From assembly GCF_009617975.1 (NCBI RefSeq), contig NZ_CP040089.1, positions 90,001 to 122,000 of the forward strand: 32,000 nucleotides of DNA, written 5' to 3'. The stretch comes from Candidatus Nanohalobium constans (GTDB lineage: Archaea; Nanohalarchaeota; Nanosalinia; Nanosalinales; Nanosalinaceae). Position 1 is the stretch's first letter. Each line of letters starts with the position of its first letter. Below the pieces are notes generated by a model. The model saw only the letters and a list, made by a program, of their open reading frames with translations. It was not told the origin of the DNA and made no database searches. Both the position numbers and the translations under genes were made by a program. This document shows, in pieces, positions 3,207 through 27,015 of this stretch.

Positions 3207-4247
3207 TCAGGTATTCAGTAAGTTCCTCACCTTTCTAAGGTTTCTCTCAGGCTCCTCAATAAACCTTATTGAAAAACTTGAACCATCTCTAAGGCTTATT
3301 TTTATCGTCCCTACTCCGAATAAGCTTTCTATTCTGCTTTCAGTCATGGAAATGTTCTCTATGTCTTTGCACAGAAATTCTTCGTCTTGGTGACGGCTCT
3401 CTCTTTTGATGAAATCTCTTTTGATGGTATAATTAGTTGACTTCAGTCCAATATAGTCTGAAATCAAGAGATTTGATACGATAGCTGCTGATCCTATCGA
3501 ACTTATCAATAAAAGCAAATTTGTGGTAATTGCTTCATTGATACTTTCTATCCTGGTTGATGCTAGAAGTATTACTCCAAAGACACCTATAAATATTATT
3601 GGAGCTATGATAAGAGTGATAAATAGGTTAGTTGTTATTCCTGCCCCAACATTTGGTTTAAGGCTGAGTGAGGAGATCCTATCATTAAATCTATTTGTTT
3701 TTCGCTTATTTTTGATTTCTTTAATATCTTCTCTAATCATTCCGCGAAGTTGGTTTTCCAAGAAATCTGGTTTGCTTAAATATTCTAGTTCAACTTCTTT
3801 TTGGGAGGTACTGAGTTTCAGATTTCCGGTGTTAAAGAACCTCTGTAAGAAGGGTCTGTTAACTTGGAGTCTGTCTATGTTATTGAAAGATATGTCCTCG
3901 TTGCTTCGAGTCTTTTTAACCTCTATTTCATCTTCATGAATAATATATCTCCACTTATTCAATTCTTTACTTATGAAATGTCCTTCGACTAACGAAAACC
4001 CAATGAAAAAAAGTATGACGCTAACTGAAGAAGTAAGAATGACTGCGGCAGAACTCACTCCCAAAAAAGGTTTAGTCATCACATAAGATATCAGGAAACC
4101 TATTATTCCTATGACAAATCCTGCTAGGGCTGAGAATCCGGTATTAGGAGATATATTGTTATAGATGTCTCTTCTTAAAAGCGACTTAACAATCATGCAA
4201 GTCGTCGCCGATTTTTTAAATGGCTTGATGTTCACAGCGTCTGACAT
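3207..4247 (-). CDS. Membrane protein with two bacterial-PH (bPH_2/YdbT-like, DUF304) modules
   Basis: Two repeats of a TM hairpin followed by a soluble about 80-aa module (e.g. ISFNNIDRLQVNRPFLQRFFNTGNLKLST and IENISMTESRIESLFGVGTIKISL), as in YdbS/YdbT proteins. Confidence 0.55.
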   Translation of the reverse strand: MSDAVNIKPFKKSATTCMIVKSLLRRDIYNNISPNTGFSALAGFVIGIIGFLISYVMTKPFLGVSSAAVILTSSVSVILFFIGFSLVEGHFISKELNKWRYIIHEDEIEVKKTRSNEDISFNNIDRLQVNRPFLQRFFNTGNLKLSTSQKEVELEYLSKPDFLENQLRGMIREDIKEIKNKRKTNRFNDRISSLSLKPNVGAGITTNLFITLIIAPIIFIGVFGVILLASTRIESINEAITTNLLLLISSIGSAAIVSNLLISDYIGLKSTNYTIKRDFIKRESRHQDEEFLCKDIENISMTESRIESLFGVGTIKISLRDGSSFSIRFIEEPERNLRKVRNLLNT

Positions 4248-4311
4248 TAAACTATAGTAAGAAGAAAGTTATTGAAATAAGTAAAGGGAAGATTTTTAGG
4301 CTTAGCCCACT

Positions 4312-5421
4312 TTAGATAAACTCTACGCCTAGTTCCTGCTCAATTTCGTCCTCATACTCGTCTTGGTGAGTTTTTTCAGGTCCGTAGATCTGTGGGCTGT
4401 CGACCCCTGTGACGATTATCATGGATTGCAGTGAGTTGTCCATGTCTTCTCTGACTTGTGCTCCCCAGATGATCTTGGCTGAGTCGTGCAGTTTTCCTGA
4501 AACTGTGTTGACGACTTCCTGTGCTTCGTTGAGGGAGAGGTTGGTGCCTCCTGTTACATTGACAAGTGCTCCTTTCCCTCCTTCGATGTCTACATCAAGT
4601 AGTGGGTTGCTTAGTGCTTTCTGGACTGCTTCTGTTGCTCTGGAGTCTGTATCGGATTGTCCCATTCCGATCATTGCGATTCCTCCTTCTCCCATGACGG
4701 CTCTGATGTCCGCGAAGTCGAGGTTGACCAGTCCTGGCTTGGTGACGAGTTCTGTTACGCCTTTGACTGCGTTGACGAGTATTTCGTCTGCGATCTTGAA
4801 TGCTGTGTTCAGGGATACATCTGGTACGATTTCGAGTAGCTTGTCGTTTGGAATTACGATTAAGGTGTCGACTGTTTCTTCTAGTCGTTCTAGTCCGTAT
4901 TCTGCGTTTTCTTGTCGTGCTTGTCCTTCCATTTCGAATGGTAGTGTTACGATTCCTACGGTTAGTGCGCCTTCTTTCTTGGCTTGTTCTGCGATTACTG
5001 GTGCTGATCCTGTTCCTGTTCCTCCTCCGAGGCCGCAGGTGATGAATACCATGTCAGCTCCTTCGACCTGCTGTTTTACTTTCTGCTGAGATTCTTTGGC
5101 AGATTCCTCTCCGACTTTTGGGTCTGCTCCTGCGCCGAGACCTTGAGTAAGTTCTTTCCCAATTAGTACTTTTTCATCGGCATTTGCATAGAGAAGGTCC
5201 TGTGCATCAGTGTTCATCGCAACTGTCTCGCAGCCTTCAATTCCTACTTCAACAAGTCTGGAGATAGTATTGTTTCCTGCTCCACCTGAGCCGATTACCT
5301 TGATATCAGCTTTTCTCTGTTCTATCAAGTCCTCAAGCTCGTCGTCAATATCATGGTTTTTCTGCTTTTGAGGCACTGATCCAGAATCGTTCCGCCTTGC
5401 TTCATTTATAGAATCTTCCAT
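4312..5421 (-). CDS. ftsZ: Cell division GTPase FtsZ
   Basis: VIGSGGAGNNTISRL, tubulin signature GLGGGTGTGSAPVIAE, NTDAQ motif. Confidence 0.95.
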   Translation of the reverse strand: MEDSINEARRNDSGSVPQKQKNHDIDDELEDLIEQRKADIKVIGSGGAGNNTISRLVEVGIEGCETVAMNTDAQDLLYANADEKVLIGKELTQGLGAGADPKVGEESAKESQQKVKQQVEGADMVFITCGLGGGTGTGSAPVIAEQAKKEGALTVGIVTLPFEMEGQARQENAEYGLERLEETVDTLIVIPNDKLLEIVPDVSLNTAFKIADEILVNAVKGVTELVTKPGLVNLDFADIRAVMGEGGIAMIGMGQSDTDSRATEAVQKALSNPLLDVDIEGGKGALVNVTGGTNLSLNEAQEVVNTVSGKLHDSAKIIWGAQVREDMDNSLQSMIIVTGVDSPQIYGPEKTHQDEYEDEIEQELGVEFI

Positions 5422-22072: not shown

Positions 22073-22378
22073 TTGGCTGATAAGATAATAGATAGCAGGG
22101 ATGAAAAACAGAGCTCAGAAGGCCAAACATACATACTGGATGTAGTCGCTTACACTGTTCCAGAAAGCGACCAATTTCCATCAGGGGTAAAGTACAGCTT
22201 CCAAGCTGTATACAAGGAAACGGAACAGCTAATCGTCCGTTACGATAACGCAAACGATAGTCACGCAGCCAAACACCACAAACATGTCATGAAAGATGGA
22301 GAAGAAACTACTGAGTCACTTGAACTACAACCAGGAAACGCAAAACAACTGCATAAACTATTCCAAAAAATGGATTGA
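22073..22378 (+). CDS. DUF6516/TumE-like small protein (putative toxin of a two-gene module)
   Basis: About 100 aa with VRYDNANDSHAAKHHKHV (RYDN..H....HHKH signature as I remember for this family); followed 15 nt later by an HTH partner. Confidence 0.45.
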   Translation: MADKIIDSRDEKQSSEGQTYILDVVAYTVPESDQFPSGVKYSFQAVYKETEQLIVRYDNANDSHAAKHHKHVMKDGEETTESLELQPGNAKQLHKLFQKMD

Positions 22379-22392
22379 AGAGATGAAACAAA

Positions 22393-22845
22393 ATGTCAAA
22401 TGAAAACAGAATTGAAAGAGAAATACCGTACGGGAAAAAACTTGTAATAAAAGAGAGAAATCTGGAACAGGCAGTAGAGGACATGAATCAGCAATTTGAA
22501 TCCTTTATCGAAGATGGAGAAGAATCAGGTGTGGTTGTAGGATTTGAAGATCCTGAAAAAATAAGGCAGATCTTAACTCCTAAGAGAAGAGAATTAATGA
22601 GCGCCATAATATCTGCAGAGCCAGAAAGCATAAGCCAATTAGCAGACATAACAGATAGAGGAATTACAGAAGTACACAGAGACCTAGAAATACTGAAAGA
22701 AAATAAACTAGTCTACATCGAAGGAGAAGAAGTCAACGGCAAAGCCAAGAAACCAGTAGTACCCTACTCAGACATAGAAATCAATTACAACCTGAAAAGC
22801 AGCTTGATGAGTAATAAAGAAGTGAAAGACTTTAAAACAGCTTAG
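22393..22845 (+). CDS. Winged-HTH DNA-binding protein (HVO_A0114/TumA-like putative antitoxin/regulator)
   Basis: VVGFEDPEKIRQILTPKRRELMSAIISAEPESISQLADITDRGITEVHRDLEILKENKLVYIE..KAKKPVVPYSDIEI matches the pattern of this haloarchaeal regulator family. Confidence 0.55.
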   Translation: MSNENRIEREIPYGKKLVIKERNLEQAVEDMNQQFESFIEDGEESGVVVGFEDPEKIRQILTPKRRELMSAIISAEPESISQLADITDRGITEVHRDLEILKENKLVYIEGEEVNGKAKKPVVPYSDIEINYNLKSSLMSNKEVKDFKTA

Positions 22846-22934: not shown

Positions 22935-22946
22935 GGTTTTAAATCC
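22935..22946 (+). promoter_or_regulatory. TATA/BRE-like box (GGTTTTAAATCC) upstream of the DGR target gene
   Basis: Near-identical to GGTTTAAATCC at 30122-30132; an ATG at 22968 lies about 27 nt downstream of the box centre. Confidence 0.4.
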
Positions 22947-22998
22947 GGTATTCTCCAACATGTACACATGAGTACGCAACTAGAATCATCACCTCGAG

Positions 22999-24243
22999 GT
23001 GACGAAACATCGAAGTGTCACACACACACACGAACTTCTGAATAAGTCTAAGGGCCAGTCGGCTATTGAGTATTTGACTACTTATGGTTGGATGTTGTTG
23101 GTTATTGCTATTGTTGGTGGTGCTGTTTTTACTACTGTTCAAGGTAGTTCTAGTTTGGATTCTAGTGGTTTTGATGCGGTTAGTGGTGTTGCTTTTGTTG
23201 ATGGTGGTTTAACGAGTGATAATACTTTTCAGATGCGTCTTCGTAATCAGGAAGCCGAAGAAATGACGGTAGAAAAAATAACTCTAACCAATGAAGCAGG
23301 AAACAAAGTCGTTGCCCGACCAGGCAAAACTCTGCCAGTCGGAGAAGAAAAAACATTTAATACAATAGGCTTAACTGAAACTGGAGGACAAAATAGTGTT
23401 AATGTTGAAATTACTTATGATACTGGTGGTTTGAATAATTTAGCGGTTAATGGCAGTATCACCGGTGCCTTCAGCCTTGACACTGAGAGGGCTGAGCCTG
23501 GAAACGGCGAATGGGAGTTCGTTGATGTCTCTGAAGTCAATCAGTCAACTGTTGATACCAGTGAAATGTCTGACTTCTATATTATGAAGTATGAGGCTTC
23601 TCGGAGTGATGCTAATTCTACTGACGCAGGTTCTGAATCAACTCCTGTTTCTCAGCAAGGAGTCGTTCCATGGGTTCAAATCAGTCAGAACGAGGCTATT
23701 GATAAGTGTCAGCAGGCAGGCTTCAATTTACCGAGTAACAGGCAGTGGCAGGCTGCAACAATGGCAGAAATAGGAAACTCTTCTACACAACCACTCGGTA
23801 ATACGAATAATAATGAGGACAGTAATGGGGATCAGGGAACGATAGATCCAACAAGTCATGACTGGAACAGTGACGGTGAGAATGATAGGACTTTGACTGG
23901 GAGTGGTCCGGATACTTGGGCTAACACGATTGGAGTCCATGATTTGAATGGTAATGTCTGGGAGTGGACACGGACTGTTGTTGATCAAAGTCATCCGATG
24001 CATAAGGGCGGTAGTAATGGTCAGGTCTCGTCTTGGAACAACAATGGCTATCCAGAAACACTCGGCAGCAGTAATTCTGACTTTGGAGGCGACTATTACT
24101 GGTCTTCGAGTGATGATAATCGTGCCGTTCAACGCGGTGGTGGCGCGCGCAATGGTGCGCGCGCCGGAGTGTTCTCCCTGACCCTGCACAACGCTCCTTC
24201 GCGCTCGCTCAGGTACATCGGGTTCCGGTGTTCTTTTTCCTGA
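22999..24243 (+). CDS. DGR variable (target) protein: class III signal peptide/type IV pilin-like N-terminus plus C-terminal FGE-sulfatase/C-type-lectin-fold domain carrying the VR
   Basis: N-terminus NKSKGQSAIEYLTTYGWMLLVIAIVGGAVFTTV (archaeal prepilin-type KGQ..EYL plus hydrophobic helix). C-terminus FYIMKYEASR, VPWVQISQNEAIDKC, LPSNRQWQAA, HDLNGNVWEWT, RGGG....IGFRC (FGE/CLec hallmarks). The last 38 codons are the VR. The only plausible in-frame start is GTG. Confidence 0.85.
   Translation: MTKHRSVTHTHELLNKSKGQSAIEYLTTYGWMLLVIAIVGGAVFTTVQGSSSLDSSGFDAVSGVAFVDGGLTSDNTFQMRLRNQEAEEMTVEKITLTNEAGNKVVARPGKTLPVGEEKTFNTIGLTETGGQNSVNVEITYDTGGLNNLAVNGSITGAFSLDTERAEPGNGEWEFVDVSEVNQSTVDTSEMSDFYIMKYEASRSDANSTDAGSESTPVSQQGVVPWVQISQNEAIDKCQQAGFNLPSNRQWQAATMAEIGNSSTQPLGNTNNNEDSNGDQGTIDPTSHDWNSDGENDRTLTGSGPDTWANTIGVHDLNGNVWEWTRTVVDQSHPMHKGGSNGQVSSWNNNGYPETLGSSNSDFGGDYYWSSSDDNRAVQRGGGARNGARAGVFSLTLHNAPSRSLRYIGFRCSFS
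23019..23031 (+). repeat. (CA)6C dinucleotide microsatellite inside the 5' end of the DGR target gene
   Basis: CACACACACACAC, read directly from the sequence; encodes THTH in the annotated frame. Confidence 0.9.
24121..24234 (+). repeat. DGR variable repeat (VR), in frame at the 3' end of the target gene
   Basis: 114 bp collinear with 25007-25120 (offset 886). 15 mismatches at TR adenines and 1 at a TR cytosine (synonymous GGA/GGC). An identical GC-rich 3' block CATCGGGTTCCGGTGT is the IMH candidate. Confidence 0.9.
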
Positions 24244-24250
24244 TTGCTGA

Positions 24251-24646
24251 GTGCTGGGTTGCGAGGTGATCAGAATGGGTGAAGTGGATTTTACTGGTTT
24301 GCAGGCGTATGAGGAGGTTTCTCCTGCGGTTGTGAAAGGATTAAAGTTGCTGAGAGACTTGGATGATTATGATACTTATTGGGATTTTATTTTGAAAGGT
24401 CTGCGGCGTGACTTAGCTGAATCCCTACCCCTGCTCGCTGATGGGTATAACCGGTATCATTATGATGAGAAGGCTGAAGCTTACAAAAAAGTCAGGAGTA
24501 AGCTGTCTCGTTGTCAGTCCTGTTTCCTGATTTTGAAGGATATCGGGGTTTTAACGAACGAGGATGTAGATTCAATCTGCCGTAGTTTGGAAGGTGGTAT
24601 TGGACGCCTTAATGGTTTGATCAGTCGAATGGAGGATGATGAGTGA
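24251..24646 (+). CDS. DGR-associated hypothetical protein, possibly a divergent second Avd-like helical bundle (start more likely ATG 24275)
   Basis: Lies between the target gene and avd. Its TGA overlaps the avd ATG (TGATG). The C-terminal half ..YKKVRSKLSRCQSCFLILKDIGVLTNEDVDSICRSLEGGIGRLNGLI parallels avd ..LRKADRELEKTKIFFRLSRDLGFISSGQHENISEDLVELGKMLGGWI. Confidence 0.5.
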   Translation: MLGCEVIRMGEVDFTGLQAYEEVSPAVVKGLKLLRDLDDYDTYWDFILKGLRRDLAESLPLLADGYNRYHYDEKAEAYKKVRSKLSRCQSCFLILKDIGVLTNEDVDSICRSLEGGIGRLNGLISRMEDDE

Positions 24647-24978
24647 TGCAGGATCTTAAACTGTTTCAGAAAAGCTATGATTTTTATGAGGAAGTTTATC
24701 CAACGCTGAAGAACTTTCCCCAATCGGAGCGTTTTGTTATGGTTCAGAAGATTCAGGATTCTTTCTTGGAGTTTATTTCTCACATTATTTCAGCTCGAAA
24801 AGCCAGTAACACGCTTCACCACTTGAGGAAGGCAGATAGGGAATTAGAAAAGACGAAGATTTTCTTCCGTCTTTCCCGTGATCTCGGCTTCATCTCCTCT
24901 GGACAACATGAAAATATTTCTGAGGATTTAGTTGAGCTAGGTAAGATGCTTGGAGGCTGGATTGAAAATGAAAAATGA
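24643..24978 (+). CDS. avd: Accessory variability determinant (Avd; four-helix-bundle, 23S-rRNA-IVS-protein family); start likely ATG 24646
   Basis: About 110 aa, helical, LKLFQKSYDFYEEVYPTLKNFPQSERFVMVQKIQDS... and C-terminal ELGKMLGGWI (compare BPP-1 Avd ..VGRILGSWI); located immediately upstream of the TR. Confidence 0.8.
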   Translation: MMQDLKLFQKSYDFYEEVYPTLKNFPQSERFVMVQKIQDSFLEFISHIISARKASNTLHHLRKADRELEKTKIFFRLSRDLGFISSGQHENISEDLVELGKMLGGWIENEK

Positions 24979-25006
24979 TATTAAGGCAGATGCTGTTTTC
25001 GGAACT

Positions 25007-25120
25007 CGTGCCGTTCAACGCGGTGGTAACGCGAACAATGGTGCAAACGCCGGCGTGTTCTCCATGAACCTGAACAACGCTCCTTCGAACTCGAACAGGA
25101 ACATCGGGTTCCGGTGTCCT
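25007..25120 (+). repeat. DGR template repeat (TR), non-coding template RNA region
   Basis: In the VR frame it contains 9 AAC codons plus AAT; 8 of the 9 AAC codons differ in the VR (GGC, CGC, CGC, ACC, CAC, CGC, CTC, TAC). Confidence 0.9.
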
Positions 25121-25127
25121 CCCAACT

Positions 25128-25150
25128 ACTTCAAACATTCTGTTTGGAGT
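25128..25150 (+). other. Predicted RNA hairpin immediately 3' of the TR (10-bp stem including one G-U, 3-nt loop)
   Basis: ACTTCAAACA-TTC-TGTTTGGAGT; paired by eye. Confidence 0.3.
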
Positions 25151-25363
25151 TCGAGCAAATCCTTGATTTGCGACAGGCGAGAACTCAGTCATCCAATTTC
25201 TTTGGGATGCTGGGGCAAAGCCAACCGGAGGGAGAACTTCGGTATCTGCCAGCCCAACCAACACGATTGTGTGGAGGCGAAAAATTCTCTTACCAAAAAA
25301 TGGGCGACAGCCAGTAAACCATTGATGGTTGAAAGCTGAAGCCCATCTACATCTACTTTCATC

Positions 25364-26362
25364 ATGGTAAACAGCTTTTCAAAAGACTTTGAAACTGTAG
25401 CTGGGTTTCAACCGCTTTACAAAGGCTACAAGAAAGCAAGGAAGGGCAAGCGTTACAGCAGTGAGGTATTAGCTTTTTCTGAAAGCCTTGAAGACAACCT
25501 TTTCGATCTCTCAAACGATCTTTTGACACAGAGTTACTGCCCTAAGGGTTTCAAGGAGTTTAAACTGTTTGATCCAAAGGAAAGAGAGATTAAAGCCCCT
25601 TATTTCCGTGACAGGATAGTTCATAGAAGCCTTCACATATCTCTGGAACCTTTCTTCGATAAAAGGTTTATAGAGCATTCTTATGCGTGTAGAAAAGGTA
25701 AAGGCACGCATGCCGGTGTTGATAAGGCACAAGAATTTATGAACAAGAGTGATGCCGAATACTTTCTGAAATGTGATGTTGAAGACTACTTTGGCTCCGT
25801 TGATCATAAAATCCTAACTGATATGTTGGATAGGAAGATTAGAGATGATAGGATAGTTGATTTAGTTAGAACTATTTTAGCGGATTCTGGAGACAAGGGT
25901 ATGCCTATCGGCACTCTTTACAGCCAGTTATTCGCCAATATCTATCTTAACAAGTTTGATCATTTTGTAAAACAGTCGCTTCAGGCTGATTACTATGTTC
26001 GTTACATGGACGATTTCGTGTTTTTCAGTGATTCCAAGCAACGGCTTCATCAGTTGAGGGAGGCGTCTAAAGGATTTCTTAGGAAGGAGCTGGATCTGTC
26101 GCTGCCGTTCTCCAAAACTACTTTAGAACCAATCCAAAAAGGATTGATCTTTCTTGGTTACAGAATCTTTCCAAATCACAGAAAGCTCAGGAAAAGAAAC
26201 AAGCTGGGTTTCAAGGAAAGGCATGGAAAGCAGAGATCAGAGTTACAACGGGGTGAATTGACTTTTTCTGAGTTGAGGGATTCTATTGAGTCTTGGAAAG
26301 GACATGCTGAACACGCAGATACAGAAAACCTGTGTGAAAACTTTCTTGGCAGTTTGAGTTAA
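25364..26362 (+). CDS. DGR-type reverse transcriptase
   Basis: RT motifs FRDRIVHRSL, SYACRKGKGTH, LKCDVEDYFGSVDH, the DGR-diagnostic PIGTLYSQLFANIYLN ([ILV]GxxxSQ), YVRYMDDFVFF (YxDD) and FLGYRIF. Confidence 0.9.
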   Translation: MVNSFSKDFETVAGFQPLYKGYKKARKGKRYSSEVLAFSESLEDNLFDLSNDLLTQSYCPKGFKEFKLFDPKEREIKAPYFRDRIVHRSLHISLEPFFDKRFIEHSYACRKGKGTHAGVDKAQEFMNKSDAEYFLKCDVEDYFGSVDHKILTDMLDRKIRDDRIVDLVRTILADSGDKGMPIGTLYSQLFANIYLNKFDHFVKQSLQADYYVRYMDDFVFFSDSKQRLHQLREASKGFLRKELDLSLPFSKTTLEPIQKGLIFLGYRIFPNHRKLRKRNKLGFKERHGKQRSELQRGELTFSELRDSIESWKGHAEHADTENLCENFLGSLS

Positions 26363-26622
26363 TTTTTTTCAACTTGTTTGAGTCTTTTCTTGATTTTATT
26401 CTCTGCTTCTCCTTCCAGCTCTACTTTTTCTATTTTTCCTTGTTCTGTGAGTTCCAGAATTGCTTCTTCCTTTTTAGTCAGATTTTTCCCTTTATTATCT
26501 TCTTTAAGGTATCCTCTTATGGCTTCTCTTACTACTTCAGACATTGAACTGTAGTATTCTTCTTCTTTCTTCTTTTCAAGATCTTTCCTCATTCCGTCAG
26601 GAACTTCCACACTTAAGGTCAT
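26359..26622 (-). CDS. Ribbon-helix-helix (CopG/Arc-like) DNA-binding protein, antitoxin-like
   Basis: N-terminal beta-strand MTLSVEVPDGM.. followed by SMSEVVREAIRGYL, typical of RHH proteins. Convergent with the RT, with overlapping stops. Confidence 0.65.
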   Translation of the reverse strand: MTLSVEVPDGMRKDLEKKKEEEYYSSMSEVVREAIRGYLKEDNKGKNLTKKEEAILELTEQGKIEKVELEGEAENKIKKRLKQVEKN

Positions 26623-26733: not shown

Positions 26734-27015
26734 ATGGAGTTGGATTATCATAAGGGTGCTGAAAAGGATCTTGATGAGTTGAATGATGAAGTTGAAAGCG
26801 AGGTTAGAGACAAAGTATCTGAGCTTCGGGAGAAGTTGACTTCTCACTCGGATGTCAAATTGATTAATATTGAGGGTCGACCAGTTTTCCGACTGAAAGT
26901 AGGAGAAAGAAACCAAAAACTAGACCATAGGGTTATATTTGATATTAAGAACTCTGATATACTAGTTCTAGCTGTCATCCACAGGGATGAAGGGTACAAC
27001 ACCATTTCTATTTAA
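26734..27015 (+). CDS. RelE/ParE-superfamily toxin-like protein
   Basis: 93 aa; ..AEKDLDEL.., PVFRLKVGE....HRVIFDIKNSDILVLAVIHRDEGY matches the RelE/ParE core pattern (yRlRvGdyRviy.i....i.vl.v.hR...Y). Confidence 0.65.
   Translation: MELDYHKGAEKDLDELNDEVESEVRDKVSELREKLTSHSDVKLINIEGRPVFRLKVGERNQKLDHRVIFDIKNSDILVLAVIHRDEGYNTISI

Follow-up and report, generated by a model that had tools for sequence, protein, structure and literature searches.

Anatomy of a chromosomal diversity-generating retroelement in Candidatus Nanohalobium constans LC1Nh and of its probably pilin-like target

The stretch of DNA analysed here (the window; 32,000 nucleotides, nt, of contig NZ_CP040089.1) very probably holds a complete chromosomal diversity-generating retroelement (DGR) of Candidatus Nanohalobium constans LC1Nh whose target is a pilin-like surface adhesin, a reading to which we give a probability of about 0.92. 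All of the sequence-level features that define a DGR were found at the LC1Nh locus, the elements at the 3' repeat boundary as candidates. Its parts lie on the plus strand in the order target with variable repeat (VR), small open reading frame (ORF), avd, template repeat (TR), spacer and reverse transcriptase (RT), as a preliminary description of the window had claimed with coordinates that proved correct to within a few bases. The DGR call of that description was borne out by the adenine bias between TR and VR, a DGR-type RT, an Avd above its cutoff and a target of the formylglycine-generating enzyme (FGE) type. Its guess at a nanohaloarchaeal organism was likewise right, the RT matching a protein of Candidatus Nanohalobium constans (genome 973,463 bp) at 100% identity.

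The DGR itself is nothing new, as DGRs are well known in DPANN archaea and this one has been published. It must count as known because La Cono et al. (2020, PNAS; PMC7443923) reported the same locus in the same strain and genome, with a 100% identical RT. In that paper, the DGR variable proteins of LC1Nh were assigned to the FGE subclass having the fold of a C-type lectin (CLec), and a role of the DGR in the symbiont–host interaction was proposed. Its main text mentions neither a prepilin-like N-terminus, nor a second Avd-like gene, a (CA)n tract or a spacer RNA, and no further paper joining "Nanohalobium" and "DGR" was found in the literature searched. As far as the searchable literature shows, the acidic Avd paralogue, the prepilin-like target, the candidate simple sequence repeat (SSR) switch, the structured spacer and the exchange of the cassette, including with a haloarchaeon, are new. 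This finer anatomy is testable because Ca. Nanohalobium constans is among the few cultivated DPANN–host pairs.

The features of the DGR are as follows (aa, amino acids or residues; pI, isoelectric point; AF2, AlphaFold2; IMH, initiation of mutagenic homing). Throughout the text, L001 and similar labels denote compared loci, and P0121 and similar labels denote compared proteins.

22999..24243, plus strand: DGR target, 414 aa, GTG start, with leader, KG|Q motif, hydrophobic helix, beta-sandwich and an FGE-sulfatase/C-type-lectin-like domain that includes the VR
23019..23031, plus strand: (CA)6C tract in the leader coding region, candidate slipped-strand phase-variation switch (repeat scan, allele comparison)
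23062..23478, plus strand: pilin-like module, alpha-helix aa 22-49 and beta-sandwich aa 54-160 (AF2, Foldseek)
24120..24231, plus strand: VR, last 37 target codons before SFS and the stop codon (imperfect repeat of the TR)
24215..24246, plus strand: VR 3' hairpin ACATCGG-GTT-CCGGTGT, then TCTTTTTCCTGATTG, IMH-like (conserved across loci)
24275..24646, plus strand: acidic Avd-like accessory gene (the small ORF), 123 aa, pI 4.8 (conservation, profiles, AF2)
24646..24978, plus strand: Avd, 110 aa (NF033474, PF22296)
25006..25117, plus strand: TR, non-coding, between Avd and RT (imperfect repeat of the VR)
25118..25363, plus strand: structured TR–RT spacer RNA, 246 nt (RNAalifold covariation)
25118-25122/25273-25277, 25184-25194/25205-25214, 25300-25311/25335-25346 and 25317-25320/25327-25330, plus strand: spacer helices (RNAalifold consensus)
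25364..26362, plus strand: DGR reverse transcriptase, 332 aa (RVT_1 6.6e-20, 8ub7 match)

The repeat pair and the reverse transcriptase

VR and TR are both 112 nt long, lie at an offset of 886 nt and differ at 16 positions, 15 of which are TR adenines (26 A in 112 nt; hypergeometric P 7e-11). Fourteen of these 15 adenine mismatches fall in codon positions 1-2 of the target ORF. The 26 TR adenines are spread over 15 codons, including 9 AAC and 1 AAT; no adenine substitution in the TR can give rise to a stop codon, and about 1e14 protein variants are possible. The preliminary description had located the repeats correctly, but its 3' ends (24234 and 25120) were 3 nt too long, as the homology ends after GGTGT, and the spacer, given there as 243 nt, measures 246 nt (25118-25363). 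A second VR is absent from the 32-kb window.

The final 17 nt of VR and TR alike form the hairpin ACATCGG-GTT-CCGGTGT, which lies at 25101-25117 in the TR and is invariant across loci. After the hairpin, the VR continues with TCT(C/T)TTTCCTGATTG in most loci and the TR with CCTCCC, both of which are largely conserved. The window, L001, L019-L026 and L027 share this VR-side sequence with little or no change, though the target proteins are only about 50% identical; the L032/L033/L036 lineage has TCTCTTTCTCCTGATTCC in its place. The hairpin plus the VR- and TR-specific sequences 3' of it look like a candidate IMH/IMH* pair. A fold of the DNA 3' of the VR gave no cruciform besides the 7-bp hairpin (z 0.18).

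The four-gene cassette was also found in L001, L019-L023 and L027, and adenine-specific differences between VR and TR recur in the related loci: 12/13 in L001, 10/15 in L019, 17/17 in L027 and 16/16 in L032/L033, where the VR/TR pair was reconstructed from overlapping contigs. Four of the five non-adenine mismatches of L019 lie at the 5' margin of the fixed 112-nt segment that was compared. Because the VR of each lineage is unlike its own TR almost only at adenines, retrohoming has been repeated in this clade.

The RT (pI 9.0) carries IGTLYSQ at aa 182-188 and YMDD at aa 214-217, the IGxxxSQ and YMDD motifs that had been named earlier, and in the profile searches that had been proposed, RVT_1 matched the RT and PF03781 the target. 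The best PDB match of the RT was the Bordetella DGR RT structure 8ub7 (E 5.2e-54, 187 bits, full-length alignment over residues 12-323). A different origin, i.e., an RT from a group II intron, a retron or a defence system beside an ordinary duplication of 112 nt, would be in line with its top NCBIfam match, group_II_RT_mat (TIGR04416), and with the "retron-type" or "maturase" annotations of homologues in databases. However, the group_II_RT_mat score of 148 bits is well under the cutoff of 300, and the retron St85 model reached 59 bits with a cutoff of 235. Group II intron and retron RTs in the PDB gave at most 72 bits (best group II RT 3.7e-19) vs. 187 bits for the DGR RT structure, so the affinity that the preliminary description had named as counting against a DGR was not seen. 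Intron and retron RNA families had no Rfam match at E up to 1, a canonical Avd gene adjoins, and the mismatches are adenine-specific (P 7e-11). The group II intron or retron reading is refuted by the sub-cutoff scores, the affinity to 8ub7, the lack of an Rfam match and the adenine bias, and its probability is practically nil.

The target protein and its leader

Residues 207-411 of the target match the FGE-sulfatase family PF03781 (E 6e-13), and the top PDB sequence match of the target was 5vf4 (E 5.5e-8), which we believe is TaqVP, a DGR variable protein from Thermus aquaticus. The FGE fold is a usual scaffold of DGR variable proteins, with TvpA and TaqVP as examples.

The N-terminus of the target reads ...NKSKG|QSAIEYLTTYGWMLLVIAIVGGAVF. 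Of 16 aligned homologues, the 13 with gene models extending that far, among them the second N. constans paralogue P0122, carry the motif KGQSAIEYL(T/M)TYGWMLLVVAIVGGA in near-invariant form, and the leaders before the KGQ motif vary in length and sequence. A variable leader followed by an invariant KG|Q helix is the pattern of a putative class III (prepilin-type) signal with an assembly helix; the leader, the [K/R]G and the hydrophobic helix were recognised by reading of the motif, not by a model score. The NCBI model of the target (P0121, 362 aa) begins at residue 53 and thereby leaves out the conserved signal and the hydrophobic helix (22999-23157). JGI gene callers shorten several of the target homologues in the same way.

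In the AF2 model of the target, the N-terminal module was the sole moderately confident part, with a pLDDT of 65-84 for the sandwich. The top Foldseek match of this model was 8fk7_A, an archaeal type IV pilin of Pyrobaculum (E 1.9e-3, TMt 0.45), a result that is informative for the N-terminal module only. Other nanohaloarchaeal proteins have this module joined to LamG or PKD domains. The proteins P0151 and P0153 possess the same VR domain with a different N-terminus, and the N-terminus of P0151 matches TIGR02537 (23.6 bits, cutoff 20) and UpsA. Given the prepilin-like signal and the beta-sandwich, the target is most likely shown on the cell surface or on a type-IV-pilus-like fibre, and its pilin-like surface display is likely but not proven.

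The target has also been named "formylglycine-generating enzyme family protein" and "SUMF1/EgtB/PvdO family nonheme iron enzyme" by NCBI, and it gave weak NCBIfam matches to EgtB and SenA at E 0.004, as would be expected of a cytoplasmic or secreted FGE-type (SUMF1/EgtB-like) enzyme rather than a pilin-like adhesin. However, the EgtB and SenA matches amount to 16 bits vs. cutoffs of 360-420, and the annotated 362-aa model is without the conserved N-terminal signal and helix. In addition, the C-type-lectin scaffold of DGR variable proteins usually has the FGE fold (PMC7443923). An enzymatic role of this kind is therefore very improbable, and we retain the pilin-like adhesin.

Outside the window, the N. 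constans genome encodes a second target paralogue, P0122, a protein of 415 aa with 82% identity; its leader is MKFRTSKG|Q, and there is no CA tract. In a comparison made at the protein level only, its C-terminus differed from the TR-encoded peptide mostly at Asn codons. P0122 thus probably represents a remote VR that belongs to the same TR.

The (CA)6C tract stands after the GTG start and before the KG|Q codons of the target gene and is the sole dinucleotide repeat of at least 5 units in the 32 kb, where 0.01 would be expected by chance. A (CA)n tract of variable length is present in all of the nanohaloarchaeal homologue loci examined, and the Haloplanus salinus locus (L001) is without it. In a 2002-nt alignment of L019/L020 with L021/L023, one CA unit was the sole internal difference (tract positions ~6660-6680 in L019 and ~2585-2600 in L021). 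With (CA)7C, as in L019/L020, an upstream ATG is in frame and gives a 428-aa prepilin; with (CA)6C, as in L021/L023, no in-frame start exists upstream of KGQ. A length polymorphism of this frame-setting repeat was seen in that sister lineage only, and for the window strain one allele is known, which is in frame with GTG 22999. The tract is thus a candidate for slipped-strand phase variation in an archaeon, with the switching known only from two alleles in metagenome assemblies. As side observations, a near-perfect palindrome, TCATCACCTCGAGGTGACGA (22986-23005), covers the GTG start and the Shine-Dalgarno-like GAGGTGA, and another GTG, at 23015, lies one frame away and would be brought into register by the loss of one CA unit.

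The two Avd-family genes and the spacer RNA

The Avd-like gene of the preliminary description (24646-24978) was confirmed as avd, matching both NF033474 DivGenRetAVD (NCBIfam equivalog; E 3.8e-29, 101 bits, cutoff 80) and PF22296 bAvd (E 5.6e-24, 85 bits, cutoff 40). Its ATG at 24646 overlaps the stop codon of the small ORF (TGATG), and this overlap is also present in L001 and L019, where it is read, as in the window, as a sign of probable translational coupling. The conserved start of the small ORF, for which the preliminary description gave no explanation, is ATG 24275 rather than GTG 24251. The prepilin-like N-terminus and the (CA)n tract of the target are likewise absent from that description.

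The small-ORF product is the most conserved protein of the cassette, with 85-89% (global) identity between lineages, compared with 71-73% for the RTs and 51-65% for the targets. It occurs in 10 protein clusters at 72-99% identity, and it is 85% (global) or 86% (BLASTP) identical to the Haloplanus salinus copy, where the RT identity is 71%. On its own, this Avd-like protein matched PF05635 (23S rRNA-IVP) below threshold (E 0.005-0.011; window copy E 0.011, 16 bits, cutoff 33.8), and such weak matches were found in 9 of 10 orthologues. An hhalign comparison of the Avd-like alignment with the local Avd alignment gave a probability of 2%, which is not significant because both alignments are too shallow. 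A profile built from the Avd-like family only retrieved 50 clusters at E <=1e-3 among 1.84e9 protein representatives. Among the 35 proteins scanned (34 of the 50 clusters plus the window protein), PF05635 was matched by 23 (best 1e-37) and bAvd by 3, and the broadened profile matched the PDB entry 2gsc, an IVP-family protein, over its full length (3.6e-10).

The AF2 model of the Avd-like protein (pLDDT 81, pTM 0.76) has two short N-terminal helices followed by long helices at 37-55, 63-89 and 95-122, in agreement with a four-helix-bundle fold. Its top Foldseek neighbours were 2gsc, 2rld and the Avd chains of 8ub7 and 4dwl, with TM 0.6-0.7 and E 0.016 or worse. We conclude that the small ORF encodes a divergent acidic paralogue of the Avd/23S-IVP four-helix-bundle proteins. 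Its pI is 4.5-4.9 in all four lineages computed, so the basic charge typical of Avd is lacking, and it is therefore an Avd relative, not a second canonical Avd. For comparison, Wu et al. (PMC5758913) reported a mean pI of 9.5 for DGR Avd proteins and two avd genes in only 1 of 372 DGRs.

Distant relatives of the Avd-like protein, with 33-46% identity, were observed at L037 169-2318, L038 258-996 and L039 5001-7383. A bAvd gene lies directly 3' of the relative in 3/3 loci examined (L037, L038 and L039), followed by a DGR-type RT in L037 and L039, the two contigs of sufficient length. Since 2 of these 3 relatives come from non-halophile metagenomes, the tandem arrangement is not limited to halophiles. 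"IVP-like + bAvd + TR + RT" is concluded to be a conserved architecture of a DGR subclade. The Avd-like protein may act as a partner or regulator of the Avd pentamer, and its conservation suggests a three-protein machinery in this DGR clade, vs. the RT–Avd pair.

The spacer between TR and RT is a structured RNA, as supported by covariation. The RNAalifold consensus over 6 loci contained 46 pairs, 12 of them with compensatory changes, and 96.7% of the cells were paired, vs. 28-45% with slid partners; the observed values were reached by 0 of 500 shuffles. No Rfam family matched the TR/spacer RNA at E up to 1, the LC1Nh spacer showing no detectable similarity in sequence to the Rfam families. Like the Bordetella Sp RNA, the spacer may be the region of RT–Avd binding and priming.

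Activity, exchange and relation to known systems

By analogy with the DGR of the Bordetella phage BPP-1, an RNA with the TR (25006-25117) and the 246-nt structured spacer would be transcribed and would be bound by the RT and Avd, probably together with the co-translated acidic Avd-like paralogue. The synthesis of cDNA would then proceed with misincorporation opposite the template adenines, and the cDNA would take the place of the VR (24120-24231), with the 3' boundary presumably set by the shared GC-rich hairpin ACATCGGGTTCCGGTGT and the VR-specific sequence after it. As an outcome, up to 26 adenines in 15 codons could be randomised with no stops, giving ~1e14 variants of a C-type-lectin/FGE-like binding surface. 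The target would be displayed as a variable adhesin that contacts the haloarchaeal host.

Several observations weigh against a working DGR with a pilin-like adhesin as its target. VR diversity was sought in related contigs and none was found, the VR being identical in 8 contigs or assemblies (L019-L026) and also in three 1.4%-divergent strains (L032, L033 and L036). Current activity in LC1Nh, which is represented by a single genome sequence, is unproven. The pI of Avd is 6.4 in the window vs. 9.2 in the L001/L019 orthologues and is also well below that of typical Avd proteins (PMC5758913), and one of the VR/TR mismatches, at 24168, is not at an adenine. Regarding the target, the mean pLDDT of the AF2 model is 47 and that of the C-terminal domain is below 50, so the fold of the variable domain rests on sequence. 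The window-type N-terminus had no Pfam or NCBIfam match (including PF04021, PF07790 and TIGR02537) up to E 10, and the profile of the N-terminal module had no pilin match in the PDB.

The VR identity over 8 independent contigs (L019-L026) and over L032, L033 and L036, and the loss of the basic charge of the window Avd, would also fit an intact-looking DGR that is silent or very rarely active, with a VR fixed after one or a few writings and with variation arising through the (CA)n tract and cassette recombination. The comparison of L019 and L021 lends itself to the same explanation: the whole 4.2-kb cassette (6200-10400 in L019), VR included, is 100% identical but for one CA unit, and the Zip and DnaJ flanks are ~15% divergent. 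An identical cassette in divergent flanks suggests that the cassette was recently transferred by recombination or spread in a sweep, and one changed CA unit beside an unchanged VR implies that the SSR changed faster than the VR here. However, the four ORFs are all intact, the TR adenines and the AAC codons are kept in every lineage, compensatory changes maintain the pairing of the spacer helices, and the VR differs from its own TR in each lineage. Minority VR alleles, moreover, are hidden by consensus assemblies, and the invariant assembled VRs neither prove nor exclude low-level activity. A silent or nearly silent DGR is unlikely in our judgement, without being negligible.

The same cassette of target, Avd-like gene, Avd, TR and RT was found in the haloarchaeon Haloplanus salinus (L001 10001-13319; QPHM01000001.1, 1274509-1295708). 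This cassette lies within a low-GC island of at least 13.8 kb (45-52% GC vs. 65-72% in the flank) that also carries integrase, Orc1/Cdc6 and HsdR genes. It is closest to the nanohaloarchaeal lineage of L019, with identities of 86% for the RT, 94.5% for Avd and 96.7% for the small ORF. The Haloplanus copy shows that DGR cassettes pass between lineages of symbionts and lineages of the host type. Some 37 additional RT clusters with 54-84% identity were found, several of them named Nanohaloarchaea or Nanohalobium and one of them in a complete 916-kb genome; one statement made by La Cono et al. is thereby out of date. A contig search with the RT returned one short Nanohalobium contig and distant bacterial DGRs, and N. 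constans and Haloplanus were not among the returns. No viral or plasmid vehicle was identified, because IMG/VR searched with the RT and with the small-ORF alignment gave no matches and tblastn of phage and plasmid collections gave nothing above 45% identity. Among the related loci, L031 has a PIN-type toxin–antitoxin pair between Avd and TR (3822-4381), and L033 has ~790 extra nt between VR and TR (713-1840). At L030 1612-2007, both Avd genes are seemingly missing and no TR/VR repeat was detectable; this cassette may be decaying.

Taken jointly, these features may describe a type-IV-pilin-like adhesin with a (CA)n on/off switch and DGR rewriting of its tip, a third machinery protein of the acidic Avd family that is coupled to, and maybe mixed with, Avd, and a cassette exchanged among nanohaloarchaea and into Haloplanus salinus. 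This combined account is put forward tentatively. If true, a phase-variable and DGR-hypervariable pilin-like adhesin would provide a molecular handle on nano-archaeal host recognition, and it would be a rare candidate of SSR phase variation in Archaea.

The LC1Nh element shares with that of BPP-1 (mtd-avd-TR-brt; 8ub7, 4dwl) the order of target/VR, avd, TR, structured spacer and RT, as well as adenine-specific mutagenesis and a C-terminal C-type-lectin-like variable domain, which are read here from the sequence. Unlike the phage-borne BPP-1 system, the LC1Nh DGR is cellular and archaeal, contains an extra acidic Avd-family gene, and has a pilin-like cell protein rather than a tail fibre as its target. 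Other DPANN DGRs (Paul et al. 2015, 2017; Handa et al. 2016), known here from the papers that cite them (PMC7443923, PMC5758913), belong to small-genome symbionts and have CLec-fold variable proteins with a presumed role in host attachment. In contrast to these DGRs as described in the citing papers, LC1Nh represents a halophilic lineage with a tandem of IVP-like and bAvd genes.

According to a preprint (bioRxiv 10.1101/2024.11.15.621889), Bacteroides DGRs diversify Type V pilus tip adhesins, so in both systems the DGR would act on the adhesive part of a pilus-type appendage. However, the Bacteroides appendage described there is a bacterial Type V pilus, whereas LC1Nh has an archaeal type-IV-prepilin-like signal from which the link to a fibre is inferred. 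SSR phase-variable adhesins are known from bacteria, e.g., SabA of Helicobacter (PMC2715451; reviewed in PMC11868660), and have in common with the LC1Nh target that a surface-protein gene contains, in its 5' coding region, a dinucleotide tract in which gain or loss of a unit shifts the frame. Unlike these bacterial cases, the present tract belongs to an archaeon, was seen only as two assembly alleles, and would operate alongside DGR hypervariation of one and the same protein. In the 2025 review (PMC11868660), how phase variation is distributed among archaea is treated as a matter for future work.

The remaining features of the locus lie outside the four genes of the cassette and are as follows.

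22073..22845, plus strand: TumE + HVO_A0114/HTH_20 toxin–antitoxin-like pair in the upstream flank (Pfam 5e-13, 1e-24)
22938..22944, plus strand: TTTAAAT, candidate archaeal TATA box of the target/DGR operon (conserved position)
26359-26622, minus strand: ribbon-helix-helix (RHH) gene in the downstream flank (Pfam 7.6e-5)
26734-27015, plus strand: ParE toxin gene in the downstream flank (Pfam 1e-8)

In the window, L030, L031, L032 and L036, the TTTAAAT is found 5' of the (CA)n tract at a roughly equal distance, and it may be the TATA box of the operon. Toxin–antitoxin-like genes flank the DGR on both sides, and the whole block lies within a glycogen-metabolism gene cluster. The glycogen context noted in the preliminary description was found again in the genes for a glycogen synthase, GH15 and GH57 enzymes (glycoside hydrolase families) and a debranching-type enzyme, and the leucyl-tRNA synthetase (LeuRS) gene is also in the window. 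The TumE/HVO_A0114 pair is syntenic in L032, with 86% nt identity.

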